A program made the translations under genes and the position numbers. Of a DNA stretch of 64,000 bases, positions 9,895-40,029 are shown one piece after another (the stretch's first letter is position 1; every line of letters starts with the position of its first letter). Source of the DNA: Bilabrum cf. latius (lineage: Eukaryota); assembly GCA_965178125.1 (NCBI GenBank), contig OZ237737.1, forward strand, positions 1,550,001 through 1,614,000, read 5' to 3'. The notes beneath the pieces were generated by a model. The model was not told where the DNA came from. It worked only from the letters and a program-made list of their open reading frames with translations, and did not search any database.

Positions 9895-11649
9895 ATGGAT
9901 GTTCGGCAATCTTTTCGGTTGCGTCATGCCTCTAGGCAGTTTCGCACTGGGCTCGCAAGATCACTTGGAGGGGCTCCTCGAAGGCCCCTGCTGTCGCCTG
10001 CCATGAAGAGATCCCTGTCTCTGAACGACGCAGATTCGGACGGATTTGGTGTGGAGGACATGTCACAGTCAAATATATCTGACACATCGTCGACGGACAC
10101 TGAGCCAGGTCGTTCGAGTAGGGCAGGAAGCGCTGCGCTGGTTCGATCCGCATCGGCGACTGAGGCGGGAGGCCTCCAGGCGGCCTCTAGAGTCGAGTTG
10201 GTCGGAACATTGCGCGAGCCACAACGTTGCTTTTCTGTTTCAAGCAAAAGCAAGGCATCTTGGTCTTCTGAATCGCTCGGGTTGGCAGCCGGTGAAACCA
10301 AGGATGGAGATTCAAACGACGAATCTGAGAGGCGCGGAAGAAAACGCAAACGACAACATGCATGCCCGCCGACTCCGAGCAAGGCGGGAATCAACTTTCA
10401 TGTGCGCGCTTAGAGGCTTGGAACGTCGGTCTGCATCGTGTTTAGGATCTTGAAGTCGAAGCTCACTGAGCTCGTACGGAACTCGAACGCCAGGCATATT
10501 GGCATTGCCGCAAAGGCATCCCAGGATCAGGCACGCCCTGGTGAGTTTTGGGGCCTCTCGTCTCTCGATTCCGATGTCTTGGAGAGGCAACTGGCGTACT
10601 CGGTCGCTGGGTGTGTCACGCCAGCAGGCGAGTGCGCCACGAGACTGGGATCCAGCCATTCAGACGCGGCAATGAGGCATAGGAGGGATGACGCGGCCTT
10701 TGCCATGGATGATTTCTTGCGTGGAACAGGTCTGGGGCATGCTGTCGAGTCCGCTTGCTCGGGGGCAGCACCAGCCGCGGCACGTGCTAGTACCGGCACC
10801 AGCACACCTCGTGCTCGCCACTGGCACACCACTGGTGGCATAGGAACGCTGCCGCCGGCACTGGTGGGGCCTAGCCTCAGTCGGTCGCGGCGCCGTCTGG
10901 CTGGACAGGATCACGATGATCCCATCCGGGCGGCGGGTGCGGCGCTCGCTGCCGCTGGAGCAGCCGGCCGGCGTGGCGCGAGCCGGCGGGAACTGCGGTC
11001 GGCCTTGTTCCGAGGCGGTGTGACGAGTGCGAGCGAGCCGGCGCAGGGCCTTGAGGTTGGCAGCGAGTGCCTGTGCGCTGCTCTGAGGGCTGCCGGCCCG
11101 CTGCAATGGGAGGGAAAGGGGCAGGAAAGGGCTCGGGTCACTACGGTGGGGAAGGGGAGGCCGTCGGAGGCCGGCAGCCGGGTGGCGGTGCGGCTGGTGC
11201 TGGAGGTGGTTGCGCTGGGGGATGGTGGGACAGATGGGGCCGGGGGCACGGGAAAAAAGAGGCGGAGGATTGACGAGGGTGGACTATCGGCGACTGTGAA
11301 ACCGGAAGGGGCTCGGGAACAGGGCGAAGGTGAGACCGGACCGCATCCAGATCCAACTACGAGTCCTGGGAGTCCTGCGAGTCCCACCGGCACTGGTCTC
11401 GACGAAGGCCCGGCCATGCGGCTGGTGCTCGCTGGATTTAGTCCGAGCAGGGGTGTGGCTCTGTTTGGGCCTGAGGGGGGCACCGGGCCTGGATCCGCAG
11501 AGGGGGGAGCGGCCTCAGTGACCGACTCGGTCTCATCAAGCAGCAGCAGCAGCAGCAGCAGCCGCGCCCAGACTCCCGGTGGCATATGCGCGACCGCTGA
11601 GCTGTCTAGGCGGATGGGGGCTCTGTTTGGGAACCCCTCGATGCTATGA
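9895..11649 (+). CDS. Hypothetical low-complexity protein; 1 in-frame TAG; start uncertain (9895 or a downstream ATG near 10003)
   Basis: ORFs 9895..10413 and 10438..11649 share a frame and are separated only by TAG 10411. Ends TGA. No recognisable domain. Confidence 0.55.
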
Positions 11650-11806
11650 CTGGGCGCTTGGTCGCTGGCAGCGCCCGGAGCCCCCCCAAGGTGCGGTACG
11701 ACCCGGCGGCTCTTTTCGCCGGCACCCGTTAGTCGCACGTGCGGTTGCACTTTCGTGCCCTGACGCCGACACAATTTCTTCCAATAAATAGAAGGAGCTA
11801 CTCTCC

Positions 11807-13567
11807 ATGACTAAACCAGAAGCTGATAGACCTTTCGATGAGTCTCTGCCGGAGCAATATCGCCTCAAACACATTCGGTCGGGCTACAGGCGGGAGACAA
11901 ACAAGGGGTCATGCGGTGATGTTCTAGCAAGCGCCGTGACCTGCCACAACGAAAGCGGCAACATATTCACGCACCTGCTAGCATTTATGATGTTTGTGGG
12001 TTGCCTCGTGCTTGTCATCACCCAGGTAGACTCTGCACAGAAGCACAGCAACGGGGCCCGCGCGCTCAGCGTGGTGCGTCACCGGCTCGACGGGTTCGCA
12101 CGCATGTGGGGCCTACGGCTCGGCGGCATGGAGCAGAATGGTTCGATGGATCACACCCAAGATTCAACGCTCGGTGGGTCCGGCAACGAAGGCCATGGCG
12201 CGGTTGCGACGAACACTTCACCTAACGTAACCAGTATTCCAGCGCTTGGAGGCATGGTGGACACGGCGTCTCGCCTCGTTTGCTTTTCTGGGCATGATGA
12301 TCCTGGAACTGATAGCACCGGACATGGCCCGTCCTGCACGTCGCTCCCGGAGGCGGTAGAATCCGGTGAAGTCGCCGGACTATCTTCTGACCGGCCCGCG
12401 ACTGGCCTCGCGGCCTACTGGGAAGGCATCCGCGAGGGGGCTGACAACACAATTCATGCGTTTGAGGAAAGATTAGAAACGATCGGCCGTGCTTTGGCGA
12501 CCGCGGGTCGCGACGTCTCCCGCCAGGGCCTCCTGCTCCGCGCCGCCGCGATTGCTCGCCTGGACGAGGCCGGCAAGTACGTCGAGCTGGCGACGAGCGT
12601 GGCCGGGGCAGAGGTCGAGGGCGTGCTTCGGCGGGCCGACGAGGCCGTGGAGGCAGCCGTGGATGCCGCCACTCTGGCGCTGGACGCCCGCCTGGGCACG
12701 CACCTGACCATGGAAGAGGCCAAGCTGCAGCAGGAGCAGCAGGAGCGGAACCAGGCGCGGGAGGGGTCCGGTGACGTCGGAGTCGCCGAGGTGGGGGTGG
12801 ATGGCACCATTGTCGCAGGAAAAGATGGTCAGCCGAGCGGCGGTGCATCGCACGACAGCGCAGAGGACTCCGCCGCCGTGCATAGGGGACTGGGAACGAG
12901 GCGGCGGCTGTCTCGCTGGCCGCTCGTCGTGTTCGTGCTCAGCGCGATGGTGTGTCTTGGATGCAGCGTGACGTACCACCTGTTCTACGTCGTGTCCGAG
13001 GAGTGGTTCGGGTTTCTTCAGAGGCTCGACTACAGCGGGATCGCAGTTTTGATCTTCGGGAGCAACATGCCCCCGCTGCAGTACCTGTACTACTGCAGGC
13101 CAGAAGAAAGGACCATTTTCACGGTGGTGTCGCTCGTGTCCTGCGCCGGCTGCCTGTGCATGGGGCTGCTGGAGTTTTTCAGGCATGCGAAGTGGCAGGC
13201 GCCTAGGGCTGGCGTGTTCGTGCTGACGGGGCTGGTGGGAGGGGTGGCGGTGGTGTACGGGTGGCAGCTGTCGGCTGCTGAGCATCCTTAGGTTAGGGAG
13301 GCCCTGTGGAGCGTCGTGATCATGGGGGGCCTATACGTGGGCGGGGCGGCTCTTTACGCGCTGCACATCCCGGAGCGGTGGAGCCAGACGGGTTACTTCG
13401 ACCTGGTGGGCAACTCGCACAACATCTTCCACGTGTTTGTGGGGCTTGCGGCACTGCTGCACTTTAGGACGTCTCTGTTGCTCTTCGACTGGAGGAGGGA
13501 GCACCTGGAGTGCCCCGCCGATGGGTACGAGGGCCTGGGGATGGGGATGGGGATCCACTAGCAGTGA
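11807..13567 (+). CDS. PAQR / adiponectin-receptor (haemolysin III) family membrane protein; 2 in-frame TAG
   Basis: Motifs HIRSGYR, HNESGNIFTH, SVTYHLF, RLDYSGI, IPERW..G.FDL.GNSHNIFHVFV. The last TM helices and the HxxxH motif lie beyond TAG 13289. The terminus is TAG-CAG-TGA (13559-13567). Confidence 0.9.
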
Positions 13568-13868
13568 GCTGGCAGCATTGGAACCAGTCGGTGAGACCGA
13601 TGGGACTGCTGGCAGGCGCTGGACTGGAGCGAGCACGCGCGCAATCGCACCCTAGCGGCCTCGGCGGACCTTACACGGGTCTAGGCGCGGCCCTCGGGCG
13701 TTCTAGGCGTGCTCTCTGGGAGCATCCATTTTGACACTGACACTTTGCACGCAAATTGTGTGTGGTTCCGACAGAACTATGTCTCTCTGCTCCCTCCCAG
13801 CGGTTCGTCGTGGTTCCTAGCGAACCTCACATTGCTGGACCGAGAAATCGCACCTAAATCTGAGCGGT

Positions 13869-16800
13869 ATGCTCAACTCTGCGACTCGAAGCCTGTCTTA
13901 GGATGTTCTAGAAACTAGACGGGACAGAGCTAGGCGTGCCCTCCTCGCTTTTTCGGACGGTAGACTTGGGCAATACTCACGCCAACCTCGACCTCATGCA
14001 CCGAGGCAACAGAGAGCAGGCAGTGAGGAAAAGACAACCGCAACGAGGCACAGCGATGTTGAATCTGGGCTGGTTGAAGGCCGTCAGGCTGTAGCGCTTC
14101 CTGGTCTTCCGTGCACCGTTGTGAAGCCGAAAGGGAGATCGGGCAGCGCGCGGTACGAGAAGGCCTTGCTGGACCGCGGCATCGTAGATTCCAGGATCTT
14201 CGTGTGTCCAAGTGGTGGCGATTAGTACAGTGATTCCGCCAGCACGGTGGGCCGCGCATATCCGATGTTTTCGTTCTCGGTGCTGGGCTACGACCCACAC
14301 GAGGACGAATACAACCACAAGCGAGCGCAGTCCGCCCCCCAGCTGGCCAAGCAGAGATTTGGGGAGCACTTGGTGAGTGCGGCAATACAAGCCGCTGGTG
14401 GCTCTAGCTCTGCTCGGGCGGGGAGTGCGGTGACCGGCACGGGCGGCAGCTCGGCCATGCTGGACGACGGCACGTCCTGGATGCAGTTCGGCCGCAAGCA
14501 GGTGTCTTTCCGGGACCTTCTGTACCCCACCTGGGGCGCGCTCACCGACGAGCCGGACGACCTGGAGCATGGGACGGACCCACCATGGGAACGGGGGCAC
14601 CCGGGGGGCGCAGCGGCGGCCAGCGCTGGCCGTGTTCTCACAGTGCCGGGCGCTCCTGGACCCGGCGGGTACAGCGATGGCGGAAGCAGTGCCGGTCGAT
14701 TTGGAGCGGGCGTGTCTGGCTGGACCGGCGCGGGAGCGGGAGGTGGCCCCGGGCTGCACCTGGAGACGGAGCTCTCGAGGATGGGGGCCGCCGTCAGGGC
14801 CGTCCGGAGGGCAATTGCGCGGCGCCTGCGGAACCGAGCAGGGCCGGCATCAGGTCCTGTACCCGGATCGCTCTCGGGCGGGCCCGTGCTCCGTCTGCGG
14901 AACCTCGATCGGGACGCGCTGGCAGCCGAGGAGTCTGCCCGTCGTGCACGCGTGGAGTGGGGCATGGGCACGGGTTCGCTGCCCGCCTCTTTGGACTCTG
15001 CAGAAGCGATGCGAGCGGCGGCCGATGGGATGCTGGCCTCATCTCCTGGGCTGCTAGAGCTGGTGTCTGCGCGTGCCGCGGCCCAGCGCGCCCTAGGCAG
15101 GCCAGAGGCATCGGGGGAGACCGGGGGCCTGCAGAGGGGGTGCGCGCGCGTGTCGGAGACGGGGTATCGGGTGTCCGTGGTGCCCTTCCAGCCCTGGGGC
15201 CAGGCAAAGCGTTCCTCCAACGAGGCCTTTCTGTCCAACCACGCCTGGCTCCCCCGGGAGCTGGGTCTGACCCACAGCAAGCTGCAACGGCTGCGCAACG
15301 TGCTGGTCGGGGTGGTTCGCAGACTGGACGTCGAGCTTGCGGTGGCAGCGCTGGCTATCATGTACCTGCAGCGGCTGGTGTGGCTGCGCGCTGTCAACAA
15401 GGGGAACCGGAAGGTTGTGGCTGCGTGCTGCCTGCTTCTTGCGCACAAGTTTGCGGCCCCGCAGCCACCGGCCGAGGGCGTGCGTGCGATGATGCTGCCA
15501 GCCCAGCAGGGCGTGCCGCTGGACGAGGAGGAGGAAGGGGAGGAGGAGGGTGGGAACTAGGTCGAGGAAGATAGTTCCTTAGGGAGAGGATGGGGCGAGT
15601 CGAATGGACAGGGGAGTGGCAGCGAGCATAATGCGGCGCAGGCGAGCGAAGTCGACCTGCAAAGCGGAACAGGGCATGAGATGGGGGCTGGCGCAGATGG
15701 AACGGGCGTGAGCGAAGCCAGCGAAGCAGATGTTGAGCGCTAGCCGACTAATTCGCTTGCACCAGACTAGTTGCAGGGGGAGCTAGCACCAGACTAGTTG
15801 CAGGGGGAGCTAGCACCAGACTAGTTGCAGGGGGAGCTTTCGCCGGAAAGTGGCGTGACAGGGCCGGGCCAGCATGTCAGCGACGACAGAGCTGCCACGG
15901 GTGCACCAGGGCCATCTTCAGGGCAGCCCGATGCTCCCTTGTAGCAGCAAGAGGAGGAGGAGGACGAAGAAGAGGAAGAGCAAGAGCTAGAGGGTCAAGT
16001 GAAGGGTGCCGCATTGGGCCCCGCTGAATCGCGGGGCTGGCCGGGCGCCGACGAGGGTTCAAATGGACACGGCAGCGATGACGATGACGCCTCGGACGGG
16101 GCATCCCTCGCGTCTGTCCAGGGCTCCGACTCGGAATCGGAAAGCGACGGCAGCCCCTTGATGGGGGCCCAGGGCCCCGCCCCGGAGCTGAACATGCCCG
16201 GCCCGGGCGTGGTGCTGCGAGCGGCCTGCGAGGCTCTTTAGGTGACCCGCTCCGAGGTGCTGTCCTCGGAGCTGGCAGTGCTGTCCATGCTCGGCTTCGG
16301 GCTGCACGTGCTGCGGGGGCCCCTGGAGCGGCAGCTGCAGCTGATCTGCGAGGACTTTGACGTGGACGCGGCGCAGTATTTCGACGGGGCGGCGGTGGAT
16401 GCCTCGTTCGCGGGGGGTCTGGCGATGGGTGCTGATAGAGGGGGGGGTGCACCTGGGGGTGATGGTGGCGGGGGTTCTCTCATCCGCGGTGGTGGGAGGG
16501 GTGATGGATCGGGTGAGAGGGGGACGTTCGCAAGTGCTCAGAGGAGAACTCAGTAGCAAGGAGCAGCAGCGGGTGTTGCCTCTAGCGTGTCTGCGCATGG
16601 CCTTTAGGCCGGTGACCGGGCTGCAGGTGCCATGCTGCAGGCTGCCATCGCTGCTGGGGAGCACGGATCGAGTGCAGACGCTGATGCAGGGGTCAGCCAC
16701 GGCACAGCTGGGTCCTCGAAGGGGCCCACTGAGGGAGATGCCGCGGGAGAGGCTGGCCCCTTGTCATCAGGCCCTAGGCACGTCGATGAGTGGGCGGGAG

Positions 16801-17354
16801 GAGGCCAAAGCGATGCGATTGCGATTGCGGAAGAGGCCAGAGCGGCTGGTTTGAGCGTGGAGAACGCACAGGATGCGAACGATTTGCTCCGCGTGCTTGG
16901 AGTGCGGGGGGCGAGTATTGCGGGCTAGGGCGGCGATGGCGATGGCGCAGCGGGGGAGGAGGCTGAAGGGGAGGGCGAAGAGTGGGAGTGGGGGGCGCTC
17001 GAGGATGGTCTCCGGGAAGAGGAGGAGGAGGATGGGGTGGATGATGAGGATGAGGGGGGTGATGAGGATGGTGTGTCCGATGAGGATGAGGAGGAGGAGG
17101 AGGAGGAAGGCAGGTATGAGGAAGACGAAGAGGACGAGGCTGCTGGTACATACCAGTAGGTGGACGATGAGCAATAGCATTGGGGCGGTAGCGAGGCACC
17201 GATTGTCGATGAAAGGGATCCGCTAGGGGAAGATAATATGGACGCGCGAGCTAGTCCGGGGCTAGATGACACTGCTGCTGCCGCCGCCGACGCGATTCTC
17301 GTTGCTAGCACCAGCGTGCACGCAATGACCGATGCGGACCTGTCTATACCCTGA
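13869..17354 (+). CDS. CABLES-like cyclin-box protein with long acidic insertions; 14 in-frame TAG; start may be 13779
   Basis: Cyclin-box-like LTHSKLQRLR..LAVAALAIMYLQRLV..VNKGNRKVVAACCLLLAHKF ... VTRSEVLSSELAVLSMLGFGL. One frame with no TAA/TGA from 13869 to TGA 17352-54. Confidence 0.75.
15759..15839 (+). repeat. 27-bp tandem repeat x3 (GCACCAGACTAGTTGCAGGGGGAGCTA), in frame, one TAG per unit
   Basis: Read directly from the sequence; encodes APD*LQGEL three times. Confidence 0.95.
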
Positions 17355-24814: not shown

Positions 24815-24976
24815 AGAAACTTGATGGGCGATGCCAGTCCATTTGTTGAATAGAATAATCATTCTTGCCTTGAATTTGTCGCCGTCATAAACATAAAGCA
24901 GTTGCAACCGGAACCACCTTATCGGCGGGCGCCTTCGCCAATAGATCTATCCATAGAAACATCAACTAGATAAGGG

Positions 24977-27205
24977 ATGGCAGGCCCAGGATAGTTGCAA
25001 CGCAGGGTTGTTCATGGCGGCCCATTGCGCGGAAGCCCTGTCGGGAATCCGTTCTTGGCACCACCGAGCGGCTCTCCTCAACCATTTGGGGATCCGGCAG
25101 GGCAACGAAGCGATTCGCCAGCTATTGGCCAAGCGCGTAGCACAAAATCGACCACACAGCCTACCCGGGGGGTTGCTGCGAAGCCCATTCCGAGTGATAT
25201 AGAATCACTCGTGACTGCCATGTTGTCGAAGGCGGCTGGGGTTCTGTCACGGCTTTCCTCAGCTACAACCTCGGGCAATGAAGACGTAGTGGCTTCTAAA
25301 ATTGTGCAATCTTCTATGTCTGGAGATGCTTCCAAGGTGCATGCCCCGCCAGAGCTGCCATCGCATTCACTCGGTGCGTCCAGCTCGACTGCGACGCATG
25401 AAGCCATGATGCGGGCTGCAGCAGCATCCATTCGATCTGCATCGTGGACGGACGCAGCAGCGCACTCACAAGAAGCAGAACACAAGCTAGAATTGCGTGC
25501 CACTGGCACGCTAGAGGCAGACGCCGGCCCCGATTCGGACAAGACAGCAGCCGAGGCGGCGCTGGTAGCGGTGCGCTTCGCGAGGTGCGTGGCCCTTCTG
25601 CGGGCGGGCAGGGGCGCCGCGGCTCTGGATGCCGCGCGCCAGCTGCAAACATGCCTGTCCGCAGCTAATGAGAAGTCAGGTGCCGGCAGTGACTTGCCAG
25701 AAGTGCTCGCTCCTGTGCTCCTCGAAGCATCTGCTTGGCTGAGCCAGGGCCGCCCTGCCGACGCGGCCGCTGTGCTCGCCCTCGCGGCCTGGCAGGCGAA
25801 TGCGCTGCGCTCGGGAGGCAAGGAGGGCACCGGTGTGACGAGTGAGGTCAAGTCGAAGGCATAGGCTGCGAGCGGGGGAACCGGTGCTGCTTCGGGCACC
25901 TCCGCCGACACAAATGCACCGCATTGCAAGGCACCCCTTCTGGCCGCGCTGGGGAGGGCACTGCTGGAGCTTGGTGACCGTGTGACGGTTGCACCCAGCG
26001 ACGCCTACCAGCTGCTGAGCGGCGCCGTGGAGGGGGCCCGTGCCAGACGCGCGGTGGAGGGCAGCAGCAGCAGCAGCAGCAGCGGCAGCGTGCCCGCCGC
26101 CCTGGTGGCGCGACTAGCCACGGATCCGCACGATAGCGCAATGCAGTGCATGGTGTCCGCCGCAGAGGAGCTGGACGGAGAGAGGCGCGCCTCGAGCTGC
26201 GTGCACCGCATTGCGGCGTGCCTGTGTGGAAGTGTGCTCGCTTGGTCGCAGGCGGGCCGCAGTGCGCTGCAGGCCAACCGGGTGTCTGCGGCGGAGCGGT
26301 GCATGGGACGAGCCAGGGAACTAGCCGTTGAGTTTAGGAGTGCAGGCTCGGGATCGAAGAAGGGGACGGGTGACTTGGAGGCGGCGGAGGGGGCGGCGCT
26401 GGGGAGGGTCATCGAGTCGCTCCCGGCCCTGAGTGGCGGTGCATCGCACGGTGGTGCACCCGAGGTGTGGGGGAAGGACGTGCTCGTGCTTGGACGGGAT
26501 GCAGCCTCTGTGGCGTGCTGCCTGTGGTAGGACGCCGGTCTGTGCATGGTGCGGCGCGGGCTCGACTCCGAGGCCGCCGAGTGCTTCGACCTGGCAGCGG
26601 CGCTGGCAGCACGGGCCATCGGGGCGGGAGTGGGGGCGGGCGAGGGGGAGGGGGAAGGGGAGGGTGCGTTGCAAGATAGTGCTGCCGCCGCGGCATCTAG
26701 AGCCGGGCTGCCTCCGTGGGTGGGTGCAGGCCTGGGCCATGGAGCGAACAAGGCTGAGGAGGGGAGCTAGGGGGGCGACACTGCGGGCCTGCGCTCGTAG
26801 GCTAGGGGCCTGCTGGCGGCGGCGGCGGATGCTCACGCCTGCTGCGGTACCGTCGGTGTGACGAGTGCGCTGGATCTGCAGGAGCAGCTGTCGACCAGCA
26901 TGGGGAACTCGGCCCTGGCCCACGTGAGGCGGGGGGAGCTGCTCGCGGGGGTCGCTCGGCTCGAGGCAGCACTGTGCATGCACCCGCCCGTGGGCTGCAC
27001 CCCCACCCGTGCGACCAACCTGCGCACCCTATACGACCTCACGAGGACGCCCAGGAGCGCGGCGGCGCAGAAGGCGGCTGTGGCAGCGCTGGCCCGCAGG
27101 TATCGGATCACCGCGCCGGCGGCCCCTCCCAAGGAGCCGGGTGCTGGCACTGCTGGCGGAGCTGCCGCTCGCGGCGGGGCGGCGACTGCCGCTGGTCGCA
27201 GGTAA
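24977..27205 (+). CDS. TPR-like protein, possibly TRAPPC12/TTC15-related; 5 in-frame TAG; ends TAA
   Basis: Single frame with TAGs at 24992, 25862, 26528, 26768 and 26798. The C-terminal GNSALAHVRRGEL..VARLEAAL..P..NLRTLYDL resembles the TRAPPC12 C-terminus as I recall it. Confidence 0.6.
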
Positions 27206-27303
27206 TGCAGTGGGATTGGTCCTATGGTATACAAATTAGCCAACTACTGCTAGACGTCAGGTTATGTGTTTGCTTCAAGTCATGCACGGAACCGCGGCCA
27301 GAA

Positions 27304-27870
27304 TTACCCGATGAAGTTGAAGGCCGCAAAGAACAGCAAAATTGAGCAGAAGATATACTCATAAAGTCCTTGATACGAAGCAGATTTCGTATCGTATTGC
27401 TCCTTGTCTGTCATCTGGATTCGTAGCGAGCCTGCGGGAGTCGGACAAGCGTGCGATCATCAACAAGCACCGGATTGCAGGAGGTGAACGGGGCTGCGCC
27501 GCTTTGAAGGTCAACGAAACTGGCCAGTTGACTCACCTGTCAACACAAACATTCCTATCGCGCAAAAGAATGCACTTAAGAACGCATTGAACGGGAAGGT
27601 ACCGAACAGCATCATGTATCCAAAGAGCCCCACGGCAATCACGGCGCAGAACGCCATGAAGCTGTCAAGAGCCATTACCCTCGCAGATGTTTCAGATGCA
27701 TATGAGGCCCTGAGCTCATCCAAGATTCCAAAGACCTGCTGCGGCACACTCAATGCTTTGCCTACCACGCCGGAATCGGCAGGAGACGCCCTGACTCCAG
27801 GCTATGACTTGGAAGGGGTCTTGTTCGCAGCAGAGGCCGAGGACTTCTTTTTACCAGACCTTGGCGGCAT
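27304..27870 (-). CDS. DAD1: DAD1/OST2 oligosaccharyltransferase subunit; intron 27432-27536; 1 in-frame TAG; ends TAA
   Basis: LFGTFPFNAFLSAFFCAIGMFVLT|GSLRIQ...IFCSILLFFAAFNFIG-TAA. TAG at 27802-04 in the N-terminal extension. Confidence 0.92.
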
Positions 27871-28045
27871 GTTGCAATGTATATCCGCCTGGAGTGGATC
27901 AGAAATAGCTACTATCACGCGCTTACAGCTGGCCGGATCCTTTCAGCACCTTACATTGACGGAAATACCTACTGACTTCGGACCCGTTGATTGCTCTATG
28001 CAGCTTTGATTACTGCTGTATGTGCGACCGTATGCAGGTATTGTA

Positions 28046-31000
28046 ATGGAGTTAGTACACAAAAGCTGGAGGCGCGATGTTGAAAACGGTTACTGCAGAG
28101 AATGCCTGACTTTTTCAACCAGCAACGATCGAGTGGTACTTGGCAGGTAGAGGTTGCAGCTATCAGGCAAGGCCATAGAATCAGTATCTCGTAGCCACGT
28201 TGAAATTAAGCGTTCAACCGCGTGCCTCGAAGTTACCTAGCTTGGGAAGCACACGGCGACATTCATCGTGCCATCCGAATACTCAAATCGTACAGTGCCG
28301 TCCTCAGCTTTGAAACCTGTAAAGCACGGAGAATGTGAACAAGTTCCATGGGGTTCTTGTGTGATACTTGGTCTGAAGGGAGACAGCCTTCTGTTCTAGA
28401 TCCGGCGCAAACTTCCTCAAACTTCGGCGGAGGAGCCCGGTAGATTTGGACAGCAGCCAGCGTCTGCGAGTGCTGCAACGGCCGCTAGAGATCCTGGTAT
28501 GGTGCCCCCACAGCTCCCAGCGACGTAGTCTAAGAAGACTTCTTCACCTCGGAGATCGTCTGGCGTCTCCTCAAGCGCTGCTCCGCAGCCAAACCGAGAC
28601 ACCACTGGCATGCGCTCTCCTGGGTTGTCGCCAGTTGCTCGCACAGCTGTGCCAAGCGCAGCGAGCCGACCCAGTGGCACTACAGCCCTTCAACGAGCAC
28701 AAGCAGCAGCAAGGACAGGCGGGACCACCTCGGCGCATTAGTCGTCCACCGGCACGGCGAGGAGGCCAAGCACGCAGCCAGGCATTGGCCCTCACTCACA
28801 CGCACTCGATTCTGAGCCGGGATAGGGACCTCCTGTGGCGGAAATCGCATCTCATGGCGCCAATAGCATCTACCTGCATAGCCATAGTGACAGCCACGGC
28901 CACAGCCTCACCCGCGATCGCGACCGCCCAACCAGTGCTTCCGGACCTAGCGCCGGCCCCTCGCACGCCTCGCCCGCCACCAAGGCTGGTATACTTGGGC
29001 GAGTGCGGTTGTCCCTATCCCAAAGGTAGAGGGTGGTAAGGCGCAGTCCAGCGAGCCCAGGTGCAGTTGGAGCCGTTGCATTGGCATCGGCAGGGGCAGG
29101 CTCGGGCGCGGCGGTAGGCGCAGGTGCAGGTGCAGCTGCAGCAGCCGACGCCGGGCCGAGGGATCCTGTAGGTGAGGCCCAGCAGCGGCCTACTGATGTG
29201 GAAGCGGATGGGTAGTAGTCTAACTCATCGGTGCATAGTTCCCATCCACGCCGGGGCGAGTCATCGTAGGCCGGTGTCGGTATCGCTGCGTCAGGCAAGC
29301 ACTAGGCGCAATCGCCTTGCGGGCACAGCTCGGCCCAAGCCATCTGCACGGTCTGCATGCAGGAAGTGGACGAGGGCGACGAGGGCAAGCTCCCGTGCGG
29401 GCACAGCTTCTGCCTCGATTGCATCCAGACCTGGGCCAAGTGCGCCAACAAGTGCCCCAACTGCAACGAGCAATTCTTCCTGATCGAGCACCGGAAGGGC
29501 GGGGTGCTGCACGACCAGCTGCCGGTCGTGGAGAAGAAGATGCGGCTGGACGAGGAGGAGGACAGGCGGGAGGCAGAGAGGGCACAGCACGAGGAACACG
29601 CGCTGGCGTTTGCCGAGCTAGAGGCGGGGTTTGGTGGGATCGACCCGAGGGTGCTGGCGGAGGGCGTGTGCAACGTGTGCCAGTCGGGCGACCGGGAAGA
29701 AGTCCTGATGCTGTGCGATGCGTGCCAGCGAGTGTGGACGCACACGTACTGCCTGGAGCCGCCCCTCCCCGCGGTACCCGAGGGCGAGTGGGTGTGTTCC
29801 GAGTGTCTGCAGGCCAGGGCCCGGGACGAGGAGATGCGGAGAAGGGAGGCGGCGCGGCAGCTGCGGGCCCGCGCCGTGCTGGACGATGACTCGAGCGATG
29901 GGGAGGTGGAAGAAGGAGGGCTTCGAGATGGAGCCACACGCAGCAGCAGTAGCAGCAATGGAGCTGTTGCAGCTGGCAGGGGGCGTGCAGCTGGCAGTGC
30001 AGCGAGAGAACGGACGAGAGCAAGGGCGGGAACCGGCAGGGTGCCTCGATCGATTGACCTGGATAGCAGCAACGACTCTGAGAGCGAGGATGACAGCAGC
30101 ATGATGATCGTCCCGGGCGAGAGCAATCGAGGCCAAGGCCGGGCCCGAGCTGGTGCGGCAATGGTAAGAAAGGCGAACATCAGTGCCCGCGGTGCTGCCT
30201 CACTGGCGCAAGAGCACCCAGCTGGCTCGGGGGCAGTGATCGATCTTGACTCAGATCTGCTGGAGGATAGCAGCACAAGCATAGGGGTTCCTTCAGGCCG
30301 ACATGTTCGTGGTAGTAGCGGTGCTATGGCACCGGGCACATCGGCAGCATCCTCCAGACTGTCTAGGCTGAGTCGAGCCCGCGCCATGGTTAGGCGAGGC
30401 CGGACTGGAAGGCAGCCACAGCCACAGCCACAGCCACAGCGAGGCATAGCCGCTGGGGAATCTAGCAGATCGAGTCGGGTGGTCATGATCGAAGAAGACG
30501 AGGAGGAGGAGTAGGAGGAGGAAGGCAGTGATGGCGGGAAGCCGCAGCACGCTGTCAGTAGCATTCATCGAGACAGCGATGATGACGATGATAGTGGTAA
30601 TACCAGCGTGTCACGCCCCGTCCTCCACTCACGGTCTGCTGCAGCTGAGGCAGACCGTGCAGGTGCCCGGCGTACAGCTCTGCGGAAAGCAGCCCGGGCC
30701 TCCTCTGCTGCCAATATTCTGTCGCAGTCGCAGTCGCAGTCGCAGTCGCTTGATGCCTCGCAACCCTCCCCCGATAGATAGTAGCAGCCAGTCCTCAACG
30801 CCTCCGTACTGATGGGCCTCGAGACTGACACAGACTCGGACAACGACAGCTCTGACGGTCAGCGGCTGCAATCAGCGCTCGGTGGCAAGCGCAGGCGGCG
30901 CGGAGACTCCCAGCGCCGAGGCGATAGGAAGAAGAGGCTGAGACCCAGGTCGGGCTCAGCTGGAAGGCCGGAGCAGGCTGCCAAATCCAGCAGCGGCAGC

Positions 31001-31684
31001 ACTCATGCGGCCGCAAGCAGACCTGTGGGACGAGCAGTTTCTAACGTTGCGCCTCAGTCTGACCCCACAAACCTTGGCTCAGACTCGGACAGCTCGCTGG
31101 CGGCTGCTTTATACTAGATAGCGGACGAGATGGACCAGGAATACGAAAAGCAGTCGTCTAGTTCACATGTCCAGCGCCCCTCACGAGGTGGTCGTGGCCC
31201 GATTCGGTCGGCATGGGGCCAGGGTGTTGTGCCTAGACCAGTGCCCAACCAACTTGCAGCACAAGCATCCAGCGGGACGAAGCCCGGTGCACACGGGATC
31301 CAACCAGGCCAGGGCGGCTGGTCCCGCTCAGCGCTTGCTGGCCGTTCTGTGCGCCGCGGTACAACTGAAGGCTACGAGTCCTCCGCGCCCTCATCACAAA
31401 ACCGCACTGGCAATGCCGGCAAGGATCTGATGGAACGCTTCGGAAGGAGGGAAGGGGTCGTCCATGCGCAACCCCACCGGGGCAGGCCTATTCAAGTGGC
31501 ACCAGGAGGGTGGAGCCTGGCCATGGGGGGCGCCCGCGCAGCCGCTGCCGGTTAGCGGCGAGGTGGTGTGAGGGTCAATGCGGCGCCTGCCAGGCGGCGG
31601 CGGTCTGCACTCGGGGCGCTGGGGCAGGCGGGAGCGGGTGGAGTGTCCAAACCGTTTCAAATGCCGCGCCGTGCCGGCTCGTGA
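28046..31684 (+). CDS. FHA-RING-PHD domain protein (1212 aa), 16 in-frame TAG
   Basis: FHA: VVLGR*..VSRSHV..LEVT*LG. RING: CTVC..LPCGHSFCLDC..W..CPNC. PHD: CNVC..LMLCDAC..HTYCL..VPEGEWVCSEC. No TAA/TGA between ATG 28046 and TGA 31682. Confidence 0.85.
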
Positions 31685-31938
31685 GGATCCGGGTTGCGGG
31701 AAAAGTAGCCTTCCCCTCGGGGCAGGCATGCGAGGATTGAGCGGGGTACGCACTTCAGGTGGATGTACTTGTAGAGCATAGGAAGAAGTGAAACATAGAT
31801 CAAGCAATCTACAGAGTAAGAATACAGGCAGGCACGCCTTGCCCTCGCACACACCTGCCACTGTTCCCCCACACACGGTGGGGGTCGTCACCCACCAGCA
31901 ACAAACAATATCCGCCAGCGCATCAATCAACGGATCAA

Positions 31939-34900
31939 TCAGTCCGCGAGGGCCTGGTCGCGGTGCTCGAGCAGCGCCTGGAAGGCAGCCATCATGCCGC
32001 GCTTGTGGCCCTTGTTGATGGTCTCGAGGGCCAGCACGGGGCCCGCCGGGCTCTCGAGGAAGAAGCTCAGGTCCGCCTGGGAGGCCGCCGTGTGGTTCTT
32101 GCCGTCCAGCCCGTCCTTGATTCCCGTGACGCTGCTAACCGGAATGGAGCCCATCTTGGAGTGGGAGCTGTCGGCCATCTGCCACACAATGGACTGCAGG
32201 TCGTCCGTCACCAGCACCTGGTACTTGATCTTGCGCCCCCGCATCCACACAAACATGATCTTGCCGGCCGTCAGCGTGTGCCGGTGCTGCCCCAGCGCGT
32301 CCTCGACGTGCACGTTCCGCTTGCCCAGCTGGGCCTTGCGGGCGGCCTTGGCCGTGGTGGCGGCCGATGCGCTCATGCCCACGAGGGCGTCCATCATGGA
32401 GAGGGCAGACTTGGAGTCCCTCACGATCTTCTGCCTGGCCTTGCCCCGCTCCAGGGCGGGCCCGAACTCGTCCTGCACGGCCTGCCACTTGACGTCCTGC
32501 TCCTCGACGGCCTCCATGCCCTTGCGGTTCTCCTGCTGCACGGCCCGGTCGAACTTCTTGGCGAGGTCCTCCCGCTTGGCGCCCACCGACTCGACGAGCA
32601 CCTCCTCGAGCAGGTCCTGCAGGTCGTCCAGGCACAGCTTGTCCCCCTTGAGCGCCTCGAGGGCCACGGCGGGGTCCTCCGAGGTGTACTCGTCCAGCAC
32701 GGGGTCGTCCTCCGAGGCCTTGGCCGGCTCCTCGTACTCGGTCATGACGTCCCGGAGCAGCACGTCGGCGCCCTCGATGTTCTTCATCACGTCCGCGAAC
32801 TCGGTGTCCGAGGTGGCCACGGTGGACAGGGTCACCACCGCCTCGAGGATGATCATGATGTCCCCGTCGTAGATCATGAAGAGGTCCGTCAGCCTCGTGA
32901 TGCCGTCCGCCTGGATGAGCAGCGAGATGTTCTCGCGCACCAGGCACAGCAGCTTGATGAGCCTCAGGATCTGGAACGTAACGCCGCCGTCCTCCTTGTG
33001 CTTGGTCATGGCCTCGCAGATGATGTGCATGCCCTGCTCCGCGATGCTCTTCGCCGCGTCGTCCTCCACGGCCATGCTGCCCAGCGCGGCCGCCACGGCC
33101 TGCACCGCCGGCGCGCTGCTCATGTTGGTCTCGAGGACGGCCAGCAGGGACCTGGGCACGTCCAGCGAGGTGAAGGACAGGTGCACCTCCGGCAGGTAGG
33201 CCATGGGCACGGCCTGGTTCTGGTACTTGCCCAGCACGCAAAGGGCCCTGCACATGCCAGTGACCACCTCGATCTCGGTCGAGAGCGTCTCGAGCGACTG
33301 CACCAAGAGCCGCATGCCGTTGAGGGCAAGGAACTGCTCCACCGACGGCTTGGGAGGGAGGAACGTGAGCATCTCGGCGGCCTGCGCGAGGAGCTCTGCG
33401 TCCCAGTCGTGCGCCTTCATGGCGCGCACCAGCAGCTCGACGATGTCCGTCTCCTGCAGGTCCGTGGCCACCGTCTCGTCGGCGAGGAGCGCCGTCAGGA
33501 AGAACATGCAGGCCGTCTGAATGGGCGCCGAGTACGTCTTGGATCGCATGACGTCGAGGGCCTTCTCCGAGGCGGCGTCGAAGTGGATGTACTGCTGGAC
33601 GCTCATGTCGTCCTTGACCTCGCACTGAGTGGCCTGCGCGAAGTTGCCCAGCACCTCGAAGGCCAGCGCGACCGTCTCCTCGTCCTTCATGTTGGCGTCC
33701 ACGGCCTCGGCGATCTTGCGCACGGCCTCATGCTCGTACACCAGGAAGCCCACGACGGCGTCCTCGGCCGAGACATTGCCCAGGGCCCGCAGCGCCATCT
33801 GCACCAGGTCCTTCTCACCGGGGAAGTCGCGGAGCACCTGCGCGATCTCGTCTCCGCACGTGTTGCCGATGACGAGCTTGTTGTGGGGCGACTCCCAGGT
33901 GAGGCTCGACAGCGCGTTCATGGCATTCTCGAGGACCTTGATGTTTCGCTGGTGGGCCTGCATGCAGCCCTCCACGGCGCTCACGCCCTCGCTGTCCACC
34001 ACGAGGTTCACGTTCTTGCGGCTCTCGAACACGAGGTTGGCGATGGTGGCGAGGATCTTCTCGGCCACGATGGGGTCTTTGACGCAGGGGCCCTGGCACA
34101 GGCCCACGAGGACGGGGACGGCGCCAATGTCCACGATGGACTGGCGGAACTCCAAGGAGCGGCTGATGCGCTCCAGCATGTCGACGAGGGCGCGCACCAG
34201 GTCGAGGTTGTCCGGCTGCGACTTGACCGCGTCGATGATGGCCTCCACGCCGCCCGACCGCGCGATCTCTCCGCAGTTCTCTTCGTTGGACGACAGGGCC
34301 GAGAGCACCTTGGCGGTGCGCGTGGCCACTTCTGCGCTCTCCTTCTGGTGGCTGAGCACCTGCACCATGCTGGCGAGCTGGGGCTGGTCCACCCTGGCCA
34401 TGTTCTCCTCCGACTGGCCCTGCACGGACTGCGCCACCTGCTCGAGGTTCTGCGAGATGGCCGCCACCTGCGCCTGGTCCACGTGGGCCCCGCCCTGCAC
34501 CGCCGTGGCGAACTGCGCGAGGGACGCCCCGGCGCTCTGCACGGCGGCCATGACCTTGGCCTGCGCCTTGGAAGAGAACTTGAGGTCCATCACCTTGAGG
34601 GCGGCGCGCGCCTCGGCCGAGACCTCCGCATCCGCCCTCCACCTGGCCTCGATGGCCTGGAGCTGCTGGAAGCAGTGCCGGTTGATGTTGGCCTCGTTGT
34701 GTCCCTTGACCTCGGCCACGTGCTTGAGGATGCGGGCCACGTGGAGCGCCACCTCCCGGATCTCCGGGTGCACCGACACGGAGCTGGCGATCATCCACGT
34801 GTCCTCCTCGTTGGCCAGCGAGTCGATGACCTTCGCGTCCCGGTGGCGCACCACCTGCTCGATCGACTTGAGCAGAAGCGGTGCCACCTCGGCGTCGTCC

Positions 34901-37900
34901 ACGTCCACCTCGAGCAGCTGCAGGAGGTTCTCCAGTCCCTTGCTCGCCACAAAGGCGCCCGCCGCCCTGGCGTCCTGCAGCTGCGACGCGGCCACCAGCA
35001 CCACGGCGTTCCTGTTCCTCTCGATGGCGTCGATCTGCTCCGCCTCGGTGGACGTCTCCTTGAGCTTGGACCGCGTCGAGATGGCCGACTGCAGCACCTG
35101 GGCCAGGGCGCCCGCCCGGCCGGCGTCCGCCGCGTACCTCGTGCCCTGAGAGATGGCCTTGTTCGCCAGCGCCTTGAGCGCCTCGAGGCTCACGATGCTC
35201 ATCTGGCTTTCGCCGCTGCCCTGCTGCTACGAGCCGGCCGAGCCAGGGGGGCGGGGCGGGCCCCCGGCCCCGGAGGCCGGCGGCGCGGGCGGGCCTCCCA
35301 CCCCCGACCCCGCGGCCATCTGCTTCTGCAGCGCCGAGAAGAGGGCGTGCTCGCCCCCGTCCACGGCCGCGATCTGGCTGACAATGCTCTGCGCCTGCGA
35401 GGCGTCCGTCGCGTTGGCCGCCAGCAGGCCCGTGAGGAACTCGGAGCCGCTGGCCGAGGCCGCGAGCTTCTTGATGTCCTTCTGGGTGCTCTTGGTGACC
35501 GTGTCCACGCACGCCGCGACGGCGTCCTGCAGCCGCCGCGAGCCCGCGTGCTTGCGGCCCATGCGCGACAGCTCGGTCACCACGTTGAGCTCCACCATGG
35601 CGTCCACGGCGCTCGAGTCCTGGGCCATCTGCCCCATGCACTCCGCCGCCGCCTCGGCCACGACGGCCTGGTCCTCGTACAGGGCCAGCGTGTCCAGGGT
35701 CACCTCCACGGCGTCCTTGAGGTTGATGCTGCCGGGCTCGGCAAGGGCGGCGAGCCTCGACATGGACCGCAGGCCCTGCGAGATCTGGTCCGGGGTGGCC
35801 AGCTCCGACTCGGCCACGAGCCCCACGGCGTTGGACACCGTCTCGAGGAAGGTGGCGGCGTTGGTCTTGGTGACCACGCCGTCCACCACCATGTAGTTGC
35901 CGACCTCCTCGAGGGCCGCCAGCGCCTCGTCCACCGAGTCGCGCATCTTCTGGCCCCCGATCTCGTCCAGCTCCTCGAGGGCCTTGCACGCCTGGGCCAG
36001 CTTGCTCGTCAGCTCGCCCGCGTCGCGCTTGGCGCCGAACGCGCGCAGGGCGTTCTGCGCCGCGGCGATGACGCCCTTGTCCGTGCCCGAGGCGTTCATG
36101 CTTGCAAAGATGAAGCCCATGGCGCCCGCCTGGTTGACGTCCTCGGCGGCGTCCGCGTCCTGGCAGGCCAGCGACACGAGGTTCATCACGTCCGTGGCGC
36201 ACCCAGAGTCCTGCAGGTACTCCTGGTGCTGCGCCACGGCGCGCATCACGCGGCGGAACGCGCCCGCGTCCGAGAGGGCCTTGGCCTCCTGGGGCCCCTG
36301 CGCCGCCAGCCCCGCCAGCACGCCCACGGCCGAGCGCAGCACCTCGGTGTTGGCATCCTCCATGCAGATCTTGGACAGGGCAGACTTGGCCGCGTCCACG
36401 GCGCCCACCTTCTTGGCCGACTCGGCCCCCTCTGGCCCGCTGCACAGGCCGCCCAGGACCCCGAGGGCGGACGCCACGGCCTGGGGCGCCCCGTCCTCCA
36501 TGTTCTCCTCGAGCCACTCGGCCGCCATGGCGCCCGCCTCGGTGGCCGCCACTTGCTTGCGGCCCTCGGGGCCCGATCTGGCCAGAGACCCCAGCGCGGC
36601 GAACCCAGCCTTGGTGGCCACCTCGTCCTGCTGCAGGACCTTGAGCTGCTCCACCATGGTCCCCGCCACCTTGCCGCCCAGAGAGCCCTGCACCGCCTGC
36701 GCGCCCTTGACGTCCGAGGCCGCGATGGCCGTGATCGCGTCGAAGCACTCCTTCACCGCGAGCCCGCGCTGGAGCGTCTCCGAGACGTCCGTCACGGCGC
36801 TGACGATGGCGTCCGTGGAGCCGATGGCCGAGGCCACGTTGGCCACGGCCTTGATGGCCATGGGCAGCATCTCCTGGCACTCGACCGCCTCCTTGGCGCG
36901 CTTCTCCTTCTTGGCGTCCGACTCGGAGCCCTTGGGCACGGTCTCCGCCTTCTTGAGGCGGTCCATGACGGAGCGGGTGACGTCGGCCAGCTGCCTGTCG
37001 CCGCCCCCCTTGGCGATCTTGGCGGCGTTGGAGCCGACCGAGGACACGTGCCCGATGCGGGCCAGCACGGGCCGCATCTTGTCCGCCTTGGTCTTGCCCT
37101 TCTCCTTGGCGGCCGTGCCCAGGGAGGTGAGGTCCTGGAGGTAGGTGTTCACGTCCGTGTCCACGACCAGCTTGGAGAGGACCTTGGTGGTGGCCTGCGC
37201 GACGCTGGACCCAGAGGCGGAGAGTGCCTCGGCCGCGTCGATGATCGTCGACACGCCGTCCTGCTGCCGGAGGGCCTCGGCGCCCTCGGTGGTCATGGCC
37301 ACCCGCTGCATCACGCTGAGCATGGCCTCCATGGGCCGCTCGAAGGTGGGCGTGCTCAGGTTGGCATTGATGGTCTCGATCACCTGGCGGGAACCGCCGT
37401 CCCTCGCGATGGCCACTGCGCCCGCGTCGGTCGCCGAGATCTGCAGCAGCGTGTTGGAGGCGTTGAGCACCACGGCCGCGCTCGAGGCGTTGACGCGGAG
37501 GGCGCGCGCCGCCGCCTCGACGCCCCCCGACCTGGCGATCTCGTTGGCGTCCAGGCGCGCCATGTCCTCGATGACCCGCATCGAGGAGCGGACCAGCTTC
37601 TTCTTCTTGGGGTGCAGCTTGACCGCCTGCACGACGGACCGCACCACGCCCGAGGACTTCATCATGCCCCACACCACGGGGTTCTCCTCGGCCAGCGCGT
37701 GGAAGGTGGAGCCCGCCACCTGGCACAGCCCGTTGAGCAGGGTGGCCTGCTTGGGCAGCTTGCTCGCCTGGGCCACCTTGGTGGTGGCAGCCGACAGCAC
37801 CTTGAGGTTGTCCTCCGTGGCGATCCTCTCGGCGTTGTGCGGCAGCACCATGAGCGCGCTCAGGCAGCTCACCGCCTCGGCCGCGGCGCGCGAGTCCTCC

Positions 37901-40029
37901 GCGCTGGCGCCCTCCACGGCCCTGTCCACCGTGCCCTCCAGGTCGGCCAGCAGCCGCATGACCTCCTCGTCCGTGGACACGGCCTCGAGGAGCTCCCTGG
38001 CCGTCTCGCGCATGCTGGCCTCGTTGCTGAGCCTCGACACCGCGGGGAGCAGCTTGAGCAGCCCCGACTCGTCCTCGTCGCTGAGCCGAGAGACGTTCCT
38101 GGGGTCCAGGAAGACCGAGGCCAGCAGGTACAGCGTCGTCTCGATGGTCTTGCTGGCCGTTGCCACGGCCTTCTTGCCCTGCTTGCTCGACAGGAACTGG
38201 GCAGAGGCCGAGTTCTCGTCCTCGTCCTCCTCCTCGCCCCCAGCGGCCGCGGCCCCGCTCGAACCCCCCGCCCCCGCCTGCGCCCGGATCTTGGACGTTG
38301 CCAGCCTCGCGGGAGTCATGGCGATGGTCCGCATGAGGTGCGGGACGACGTCGGCTCGCACCATGACGGTGAGGTTCCGCTGCGAGCTGGCCAGGTAGAT
38401 GAGGAGCTGCGTGGCGGCCAGCTGGATGGCCACGTTGTCGTCGTGCCCGTTCATAGCCACGCACACCGCCTCGATGATGCCGTCGCCAGTGAGTGCGTCG
38501 AGGTCGTAGTCGAACACGGCGGCGGTCTCTAGCAGCTGCATGGCAGCAAGGGAGTGGTCCTCGTGCTCGGGGTACTCCTTGAGCACTGCCAACGTGCGGT
38601 GGTACGCGCGCGCCATGGCCAGCCGGCGCACCGCGTCGGGGCCCGTGGCCATGCGGTTCAGCGCGTCCGTGACAGCAAAGGCCGTGTCGGCCTCGGCGGC
38701 GTTGTCCGTCAGTGTCTTGAGCATCTGCCGCAGCGTGGCGTCGGACCCGTCCTGCTCGAGGAAGCTCGACTGCGACTCGGCGATGCGGCCGATGGCGCGG
38801 GCGGCGCCCGCCGAGGCCTTGGCGATGCCGGAGCCCAGCATGGTCTGCAGCGCGGAAACACCTCCCTCCTTGACGATTCTCTCCACATTGTCCTCCTCGG
38901 TGGCGAGGTTGGAGAGCAGCAGGGCCAAGAACTCCTGCTTCTCCTTGGGCGTGGAGGGATTTTGCATCTCGCGGAGCAGCTCCGAGACGTTACCCGAGGC
39001 CAGCTTGGTGAGCACGCGTCCTCCAATCTTGGACACGCGTTCGTTGGCCTGGAAGGACTCGGACACGCGGGCGATGCGGTCAAGCGCCGAGAACTCGCCG
39101 CGCAGCCGGTCCGCCCCGGTCTTGTCCTTGGACATGCGCTCAAAGGAGCGAAACATGGACTGCGCCACGTCGGCACGGTCCTCGTACAGCTCGTCCTCGA
39201 GCGTTTCGAGCATGATTTCAACGCCGCCGGCGTCCATCACGGCCTGTGCCCCGGTGGCCGTCTTGGTGAGGCGCTCGACCACGCGGGCCATGCCGAGCAC
39301 GACGTCCGGGCGCGTCTCCTTGAAGGCCTGCATGATGTGCAGCACCTCGCCGATACCACTGGTTTCCTCCTTCACGTTCTTGCGCAAGCTCTTGCGCGTT
39401 TTGAGAAGCCCTTCGGGGGCCTTCTGGCTGATGCTCATGAGGAGCTGAATGGTGTCGTCCAGCTGCTTGCTGGCCTTCCCGCTCTTTCCCGACATGGAAT
39501 CCAGGGAAGCGCACATCACACCAACTACATTGCGATCTACCAAATCGCTTGCGTACTTTGGGTTGCTTGAAAATCCAGAGAGGCACGCGATAGAGGCTTC
39601 CTGCACGGCCTCATCAGCGGGATGCAGCTTTAGCACGTCCAGCACCGCGTTTGCGGCCTTGTTCTCGAATGCCTGCGAAGAAAAATTGAACATACCGATG
39701 TTAACATAATGAAAACTGGGAGATGTTGGGCCGTGCGCCTGTGGTTGAGGGTGAGCGATTCATGACTCACATCCTTCAGGTTGCGCTCCCATCCGATGGC
39801 AGGCGGCGTAATCACCTGTTTCAGGCACTGAACAGAGTAGCTGGCAAGCTGCCTGAACTTTTTATGCTTCTTCACTGAAGCGACCTGTTGGGATAGGTTT
39901 ATAGTACTTATGGGCGAGTGGGAAAGGCGTCCGCGCACGGGACTGAATCATGATCGGGAAGCGCAGCTTCTGTTGGAGCCTTACCAGTCCTTTTACGCCT
40001 GATGATACGCCCCCACGTCTCGAAGACAT
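31939..40029 (-). CDS. Giant armadillo/HEAT-repeat protein (~2630 aa) with a C-terminal PH-like domain; introns 39885-39984 and 39673-39770; 1 in-frame TAG
   Basis: ORFs 35227..39693 and 31939..35202 are in frame, joined by TAG-CAG-CAG at 35229. ARM-like repeats (GGVEAII.A, ALGN). Strong GC3 bias and canonical splice sites; ends TGA. Confidence 0.82.

Follow-up and report, generated by a model that had tools for sequence, protein, structure and literature searches.

Introduction

The stop codons UAA and UAG nearly always shift meaning together. For example, both are read as glutamine (NCBI translation table 6) in many ciliates, in Dasycladales, Cladophorales and Trentepohliales, in hexamitin diplomonads, in Streblomastix and in Amoeboaphelidium. 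That the two codons can be separated was first published in 2017 for Iotanema spirale (Fornicata), in which UAG encodes glutamine, and for the rhizarian exLh, in which UAG encodes leucine (Panek et al., 2017; PMC5304391). In I. spirale UAA and UGA are the stop codons, 104 of the 119 scrutinised transcripts ending in UAA and 15 in UGA, and eRF1 carries the substitution T32G in its GTS motif (PMC5304391). Here we describe a gene of the DAD1/OST2 family in a 64-kb stretch of DNA from Bilabrum cf. latius (contig OZ237737.1 of assembly GCA_965178125.1; this whole stretch is called the window, and coordinates are those of the window unless stated otherwise). The gene contains an in-frame TAG and ends in TAA, and we consider it very probable that UAG is here a sense codon (glutamine) whereas UAA and UGA are stop codons, an assignment that corresponds to NCBI table 15 and to the code of I. 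spirale.

Later cases in which the two codons part ways are those of Scotinosphaera, of Protocruzia tuzeti and of two phyllopharyngean ciliate lineages (McGowan et al., 2024; PMC11687900). As described in that report, UAG is glutamine and UAA is retained in P. tuzeti and in both phyllopharyngean lineages, and there is a ciliate in which UAA is lysine and UAG glutamate. In Scotinosphaera sp. (Ulvophyceae) UAG encodes serine and UAA is a stop codon (Li et al., 2021; PMC8271138). A first-pass annotation of the window, made by a model from the letters of the DNA, had proposed that UAG and UAA are decoupled within DAD1 and had implied that this is new. The decoupling itself is borne out by what follows; the novelty is not, the principle having been in print since 2017.

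Compared with what is reported for I. spirale, the window shows UAG at positions of glutamine, UAA as terminator and neither UAA nor UGA in frame, and the predicted mechanism is the same, a tRNA-Gln with the anticodon CUA in combination with an altered eRF1. The difference lies in the stop codons, which are mostly UAA in I. spirale, whereas here TGA terminates 12 of 15 open reading frames (ORFs) and TAA the other 3, at a GC content of about 65%. With P. tuzeti and the phyllopharyngean lineages the window shares the table 15 type of code. With Scotinosphaera and exLh, as far as they are described, it has in common that UAG is split from UAA and that UAA and UGA are kept as stop codons, but the two best sites in our alignments pair TAG with glutamine rather than with serine or leucine. 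The table 6 codes, too, have UAG as glutamine and TGA as the commonest stop; here, however, TAA ends DAD1 at the C-terminus of the family and does not occur among 17,467 coding codons. The window does not resemble a ciliate macronuclear genome: its ORFs are long, introns are few, the one in DAD1 is an ordinary GT..AG intron of 105 nucleotides (nt), and the GC content is about 65%. The literature search, which covered main texts, yielded no report of a code with UAG as glutamine and UAA as stop in a GC-rich non-ciliate.

The DAD1 gene and its transcript

The gene is located on the minus strand (27304-27870) and is composed of two exons, which together encode a product of 153 amino acids. Exon 1 (27537-27870; 334 nt) starts with the ATG at 27870-27868 and encodes an N-terminal extension of 45 residues and then the DAD core. 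The single intron (27432-27536; 105 nt) begins with GT and ends with AG (GTGAGT...CAG), and exon 2 (27304-27431) ends with the codons for AAFNFIG followed by TAA (27304-27306). Across the exon junction the spliced frame reads LTGSLRIQ. The Pfam profile DAD (PF02109) matches residues 49-111 of exon 1 at profile positions 4-66 of 109 (61.4 bits) and residues 1-41 of exon 2 at positions 68-109 (32.2 bits), both above the curated (gathering) cut-off of 27 bits, so that the profile is covered at nearly full length. In a search of PDB, exon 1 was matched by human DAD1 (6s7o_D; E = 2.4e-10; from query residue 46) and by yeast OST2 (6c26_2; E = 1.6e-4). By these family matches the gene is identified as DAD1/OST2.

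The codon that matters most is the in-frame TAG at 27802-27804 (minus strand), which the first-pass annotation had placed 22 codons after the ATG and which is indeed codon 23 of the frame, most likely for glutamine. The first ATG after codon 23 is codon 66; upstream of the ATG of DAD1 there is an in-frame TGA at a distance of 24 codons, and 27871-27894 contains no ATG. The proposal that the frame ends AAFNFIG-TAA at the C-terminus of the family likewise holds, because the match of exon 2 reaches position 109 of the 109 profile positions, the TAA following directly. It should be noted that exon 2 (41 amino acids) found no match in PDB and only two in a library of 1.84 billion representative proteins, namely a fragment of 36 amino acids that lies behind a TAG and is identical to part of exon 2 of the relative locus described below, and a repeat protein. 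The end of the Pfam profile was therefore used in place of a protein-by-protein survey of C-termini. As in the other members of the family, the core spans the whole profile and NF[IV]G stands at the profile end; what distinguishes DAD1 of the window from the family is the additional basic and serine-rich extension of 45 residues, and it is this extension that carries the TAG.

Contigs of the public sequencing runs X1, X5, X6 and X7 were aligned to 26800-31800 of the window; of 15 runs listed, none is recorded as RNA. One contig each of X5, X6 and X7 contains a joint across which 105 nt are missing (27430 to 27536; with the cut at +1, CT..AC on the plus strand). The joint is absent from X1, in which a contig of 24 kb runs parallel to the window without a break. 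The spliced contig of X6 (record 14) is composed of 27258-27430 and 27536-27889 and that of X7 (record 22) of 27251-27430 and 27536-27894, in both cases with no other letters and no further joint. X6 and X7 belong to different studies, and the spliced contigs of X5-X7 come from two studies in all. The predicted intron of 105 nt is thus confirmed. Since the contigs are spliced but otherwise colinear with the genome, the mature RNA contains both the ATG at 27870 and the unedited TAG. In total, the spliced contigs extend from 27251 to 27894 (minus strand), their ends being only weak hints of RNA ends; the 46-53 nt by which they run past the TAA hint, equally weakly, at a short untranslated region (UTR). 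The segment 27895-28023 is without cover in the contigs of X5-X7 and was not used as evidence. One contig of X5 joins DAD1 with the 3' region of the convergent neighbouring gene.

A related locus with further TAG codons

When metagenome contigs were scanned with exon 1 of DAD1, one locus was found, L001 (6,405 nt; 58% GC), which is syntenic with the window: it contains a RING/PHD finger gene, DAD1 and the ORF that is convergent to DAD1. DAD1 of L001 starts with an ATG at 3624 of that contig, has an intron of 97 nt and ends NFVG-TGA. Its TGA is at the same codon as the TAA of the window, both directly after profile position 109 of 109. The N-terminal extension is present in L001 in a like kind, poorly conserved in sequence, and contains three in-frame TAGs (codons 23, 25 and 35). 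One more TAG is found within the core encoded by exon 2 (LRI-x-MTD), where the window has CAG and where 11 of the 12 flanking residues are identical.

The comparison of the two genes codon by codon shows where protein sequence has been preserved. In residues 46-153 there are 31 identical codons, 59 with synonymous and 18 with non-synonymous differences; in residues 34-65 the numbers are 8, 17 and 7; and in residues 1-22 they are 2, 2 and 18. Judged by these substitutions, residues 34-65 are clearly coding and under purifying selection at the protein level. They are located between the TAG and the next ATG, and the TAG of DAD1 must therefore be decoded. The same conclusion is reached from L001, in which there is neither an AUG nor a near-cognate codon differing from it at one position between the last TAG of the extension and the conserved block SVVGSALSVPQQ, so that translation must run across TAG there, too.

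DAD1 fragments of this lineage that begin behind a TAG are already in public protein collections. P0128 is identical to part of exon 2 of L001 from the methionine just after the TAG in the core (4081-4195 of L001), and P0003 starts at the methionine that matches residue 66 of DAD1 of the window. Both look consistent with gene calling by the standard code, which truncates the proteins. This is of practical importance, because annotation with the standard code will truncate proteins of this genome and its relatives in general.

Stop codons across the window

TAG is not a peculiarity of DAD1. When TAG is taken as sense, very long ORFs with complete domain architectures appear, and 15 coding frames with 17,467 codons were counted within the window. 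In frame there are 70 TAG (69 of them outside DAD1), no TAA and no TGA; in the +1 frame of the same regions there are 86 TAG, 17 TAA and 273 TGA, and in the +2 frame 90, 41 and 199, respectively. TAG is thus as frequent in frame as off frame, whereas the other two stop triplets are excluded in frame. If TAA served as a sense codon in the way TAG does, the ratio of CAA to CAG (113:640) would predict about 12 in-frame TAA, and the Poisson probability of finding none is about 4e-6; from four other pairs of codons ending in A or G the expectation is 9-18. In L001 the 1,603 codons include 20 TAG and no TAA, when about 10 would be expected at its ratio of CAA to CAG of 17:33. In-frame TAA at conserved internal positions, on whose absence the first-pass annotation had staked its reading, is not found in the 15 frames counted, there being no in-frame TAA at all in them.

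Of the 15 listed ORFs, 12 end in TGA and 3 in TAA, namely DAD1, the gene for a RecQ/BLM-like helicase and the ORF at 24974-27205. Where ORFs are extended past the flanking TAA, only short segments with a low GC content at third codon positions (GC3) are gained (for RecQ 0.33-0.45 vs 0.78 in the ORF). TAA trinucleotides are rare altogether, with 111 and 115 on the two strands. As to the surroundings of the stop codons, the next base is G after 8 of the 12 TGA and is T, T and A after the three TAA, and there is no enrichment of TGTAA behind the stops, this sequence being found at 1 of the 15 ORFs.

The density of TAG differs from gene to gene. It is high in the ORF with a cyclin domain (17 in 1344 codons; GC3 0.67) and in the RING/PHD ORF (16 in 1224; GC3 0.62), and low in the giant armadillo-repeat ORF (1 in 2606; GC3 0.94), in IFT139 (2 in 1505; GC3 0.87) and in TRAP-alpha (0 in 341). 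TAG looks to be avoided in genes with a strong GC3 bias.

The amino acid at TAG

The residues opposite TAG were tallied in the alignments of the three genes shared by the window and L001. At the best-conserved sites (11-12 of 12 flanking residues identical) the partner of TAG is glutamine in two of two cases, one being the site in the DAD1 core mentioned above, the other a site in the PHD finger, where L001 has TAG and the window Q with all 12 flanking residues identical. At one further site, with 8 of 12 flanks identical, TAG is paired with TAG. That both of the best sites should hold Q is to be seen against a background of 753 Q among the 17,467 residues of the 15 frames. Where the flanks are less well conserved, a range of residues stands opposite TAG (M, S, A, R, Q, N and others). 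The frequency of Q as neighbour, 8 of 70 for TAG and 83 of 753 for Q itself, does not discriminate between amino acids. TAG is most likely glutamine, to judge from few sites and mainly from the two strongly conserved ones. A DAD1 97% identical to that of the window (P0002) has Q at codon 23, but was not counted as evidence for glutamine.

Weighing other readings

If translation of DAD1 began at Met66 or at a non-AUG codon, the TAG would be untranslated, as part of the 5' UTR or of an alternative intron. Such a start, which the first-pass annotation had named, in combination with read-through of the TAA, as an objection, would go well with the poor conservation of the first 22 residues between the window and L001 and with the fact that DAD1 homologues are usually shorter, the matches to the profile and to human DAD1 beginning only at residues 46-49. 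It is contradicted by the contigs of X6 and X7, in which no splice removes the TAG, and by the constraint on residues 34-65, which lie before Met66 and include positions of the profile and positions homologous to human DAD1. Nor would it account for L001, which offers no start codon between its third TAG and SVVGSALSVPQQ and has a TAG inside the DAD1 core, or for the 69 TAGs of the other frames, and we regard it as extremely improbable. A code in which UAA and UAG both encode glutamine and TGA is the sole stop (table 6) would lengthen DAD1 by a tail of only 8 residues up to the TGA at 27282-27280 (minus strand). The prevalence of TGA as terminator, the general scarcity of TAA in a genome of 65% GC and the short distance from TAA to the next TGA in DAD1 (8 codons) and RecQ (9 codons) could all be explained in this way. 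But then the TAA of DAD1 would stand exactly behind the last position of the profile, and at the codon at which the L001 orthologue has TGA, by coincidence; some 9-18 in-frame TAA, as calculated from five codon pairs, should have been found in the window and about 10 in L001, instead of none in either; and GC3 should not fall beyond the flanking TAAs. The table 6 code is disfavoured and, in our estimate, very unlikely.

The remaining two readings concern the meaning of UAG itself. Precedents for a UAG separated from UAA and assigned to an amino acid other than glutamine exist in Scotinosphaera (serine) and exLh (leucine), and it can be argued for this possibility that the informative sites are very few, that less conserved contexts pair TAG with S, M, A, R and N, and that in RecQ column 922 is dominated by F and S and column 799 has K more often than Q. 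However, both sites with 11-12 identical flanks pair with Q, rare as this residue is; TAG and CAG are one transition apart; and UAG to glutamine is the commonest published reassignment of this kind (PMC5304391; PMC11687900). Another amino acid is therefore given a small chance. An ambiguous, context-dependent code as in Condylostoma, karyorelicts and Blastocrithidia, with TAG or TAA read as sense inside genes and as stop near the 3' ends of transcripts, would escape an ORF-based analysis as far as TAG terminators are concerned; the TAG two codons before the TGA of the HlyIII-family ORF would suit it, and so would, as a weak hint, UTRs that look short by the DAD1 contigs. Against it stand the conserved C-termini of DAD1 and IFT139, the only two that are informative, which end in TAA and TGA and not in TAG, as well as the two L001 orthologues that end at TGA and the absence of in-frame TAA. 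A code of this type is given a low probability.

The reading that we prefer, with UAG as glutamine and UAA and UGA as stops, has its own weak points, and the following weigh against it. The absence of in-frame TAA and TGA follows in part from the procedure, in which these two codons served to delimit the ORFs; the argument from zero counts rests on the length of the ORFs and on their complete domain architectures, none of which is split. For the same reason a true TAG terminator would be unrecognisable in ORFs other than those with a conserved C-terminus, which in the window are DAD1 (TAA) and IFT139 (TGA). At one site of the window, and only there, a TAG stop and a sense TAG are indistinguishable: the HlyIII-family ORF ends ...GIH-TAG-CAG-TGA (13556-13567, plus strand), which may be due to chance. 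The sample of TAA terminators is small, just 3 of the 15 ORFs, with DAD1 the only one among them with a conserved C-terminus, and reading through its TAA to the next in-frame TGA (27280-27282) would add only 8 residues and would still be inside the transcript contigs. X5-X7 are taken as RNA from the spliced joint alone. With respect to glutamine, of the 8 sites at which 6 or more of the 12 flanking residues are identical and the partner is not itself TAG, only 3 have Q; the RecQ columns with TAG are variable among 120 homologues (column 799: K 51, Q 35; column 922: F 38, S 36); and both TAGs of IFT139 are in variable columns (4 homologues) and uninformative. Finally, as to the decoding machinery, in the window and L001 neither ARAGORN nor Rfam at gathering scores found a tRNA, nor was there any other RNA family, and eRF1 is absent from these two loci.

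Proposed mechanism and meaning

If UAG is glutamine and UAA a stop, translation of DAD1 would start at the first AUG (27870), the ribosome would decode UAG at codon 23 within the poorly conserved, basic and serine-rich extension, and it would proceed through the DAD core and terminate at UAA directly after the conserved NF[IV]G. UAG would be read by a tRNA-Gln that is unable to pair with UAA; the anticodon of a decoder of UAG but not of UAA can only be CUA. At the same time recognition of UAG by eRF1 would be weakened, that of UAA and UGA being kept. We infer the CUA tRNA and the altered eRF1 by the same logic that was applied to I. spirale, as reported by Panek et al. (2017; PMC5304391).

The case is probably a further member of the known class of UAG-only reassignments and holds no new principle. 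Since the principle has been published, what the case contributes is an additional data point and a genome that lends itself to study rather than a new concept. It is possible, although on balance we would bet against it, that the window stems from a flagellated lineage with a compact genome, rich in GC and poor in introns, which is so far not on record for a deviant code and has gained UAG as a glutamine codon independently while keeping UAA. If so, the assembly would let the tRNA (CUA), glutaminyl-tRNA synthetase and eRF1 be read directly in an organism that is not a ciliate, a step which, according to the earlier work, awaited genome sequences (Panek et al., 2017; PMC5304391). Lineages that separate UAA from UAG can be thought of as natural experiments, in which eRF1 loses one purine-ending stop codon and keeps the other and in which a tRNA with the anticodon CUA becomes established. 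A GC-rich genome with TGA as main stop codon is the opposite of Iotanema, and the reassignment would therefore be independent of AT pressure.

Other genes of the window

The ORF convergent to DAD1 (24974-27205, plus strand; 743 codons, 5 TAG) ends in the TAA at 27203-27205, 98 nt from the stop codon of DAD1 (27203-27306 including both stops), which illustrates how tightly the genes are spaced. It has no Pfam family at E ≤ 0.01, but an orthologue in L001 aligns with it over 681 columns at 35% identity (E = 2e-83), the C-terminal stretch of about 60 residues being highly conserved and the orthologue stopping at a TGA about 10 residues earlier. By this conservation it is taken to be a real gene. 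The first-pass annotation had called it a TPR gene ending in TAA; the TAA stands, and the label is tentative, no Pfam family having been found. The same annotation had the RecQ gene (47189) end in TAA, and this is correct: the ORF for the RecQ/BLM-like helicase (47189-51604, minus strand; 1471 codons, 3 TAG) has TAA at 47191-47189 and contains the Pfam domains DEAD, Helicase_C, RecQ_Zn_bind and RQC. It is about 45% identical to the proteins of animals, fungi, diatoms and Klebsormidium alike.

IFT139/TTC21 is encoded by 5218-9735 (plus strand; 1505 codons, 2 TAG), with its TGA within 4-5 residues of the C-termini of the homologues. Its best match, 8bda_E (E = 7e-160), is hardly ahead of human TTC21B; the matches with a name were Pedinophyceae sp. 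(33% identity) and a contig of 5.4 kb that carries the label Symbiodinium sp. KB8 (41%). From the presence of this gene the organism presumably builds a flagellum or cilium. The HlyIII-family ORF (11522-13567, plus strand) has 681 codons with 3 TAG and ends in TGA. On the same strand, the ORF with a cyclin domain (13320-17354; 1344 codons, 17 TAG) likewise ends in TGA. In this ORF four TAGs follow one another at intervals of exactly 9 codons (codons 808, 817, 826 and 835; 15741-15824); they sit in a tandem repeat, the unit of which is APDQLQGEL when TAG is read as Q, and the TAG was thus copied along with the unit.

Further ORFs are those for an ion channel (1649 codons, 6 TAG) and an Nramp protein (611 codons, 2 TAG), and one that is open at the end of the window (3791 codons, 8 TAG). 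The ORF with RING and PHD fingers (28010-31684, plus strand; 1224 codons, 16 TAG, TGA stop) is divergent to DAD1, with its first ATG near 28046. Within it, 29110-29141 contains matches of 26-32 nt, with 2-3 differences, to the ends of several unrelated contigs of X1, and 30407-30528 was left out as a repeat during the alignment of contigs; the two stretches are probably repeats, either short dispersed ones or ones of low complexity. The armadillo-repeat gene on the minus strand (2606 codons with 1 TAG; GC3 0.94) is mirrored, within 31792-39759, by an open frame of 2592 codons on the plus strand. The latter is a long antisense ORF of the kind that a strong GC3 bias creates, and the length of an ORF alone is therefore no evidence of a gene here.

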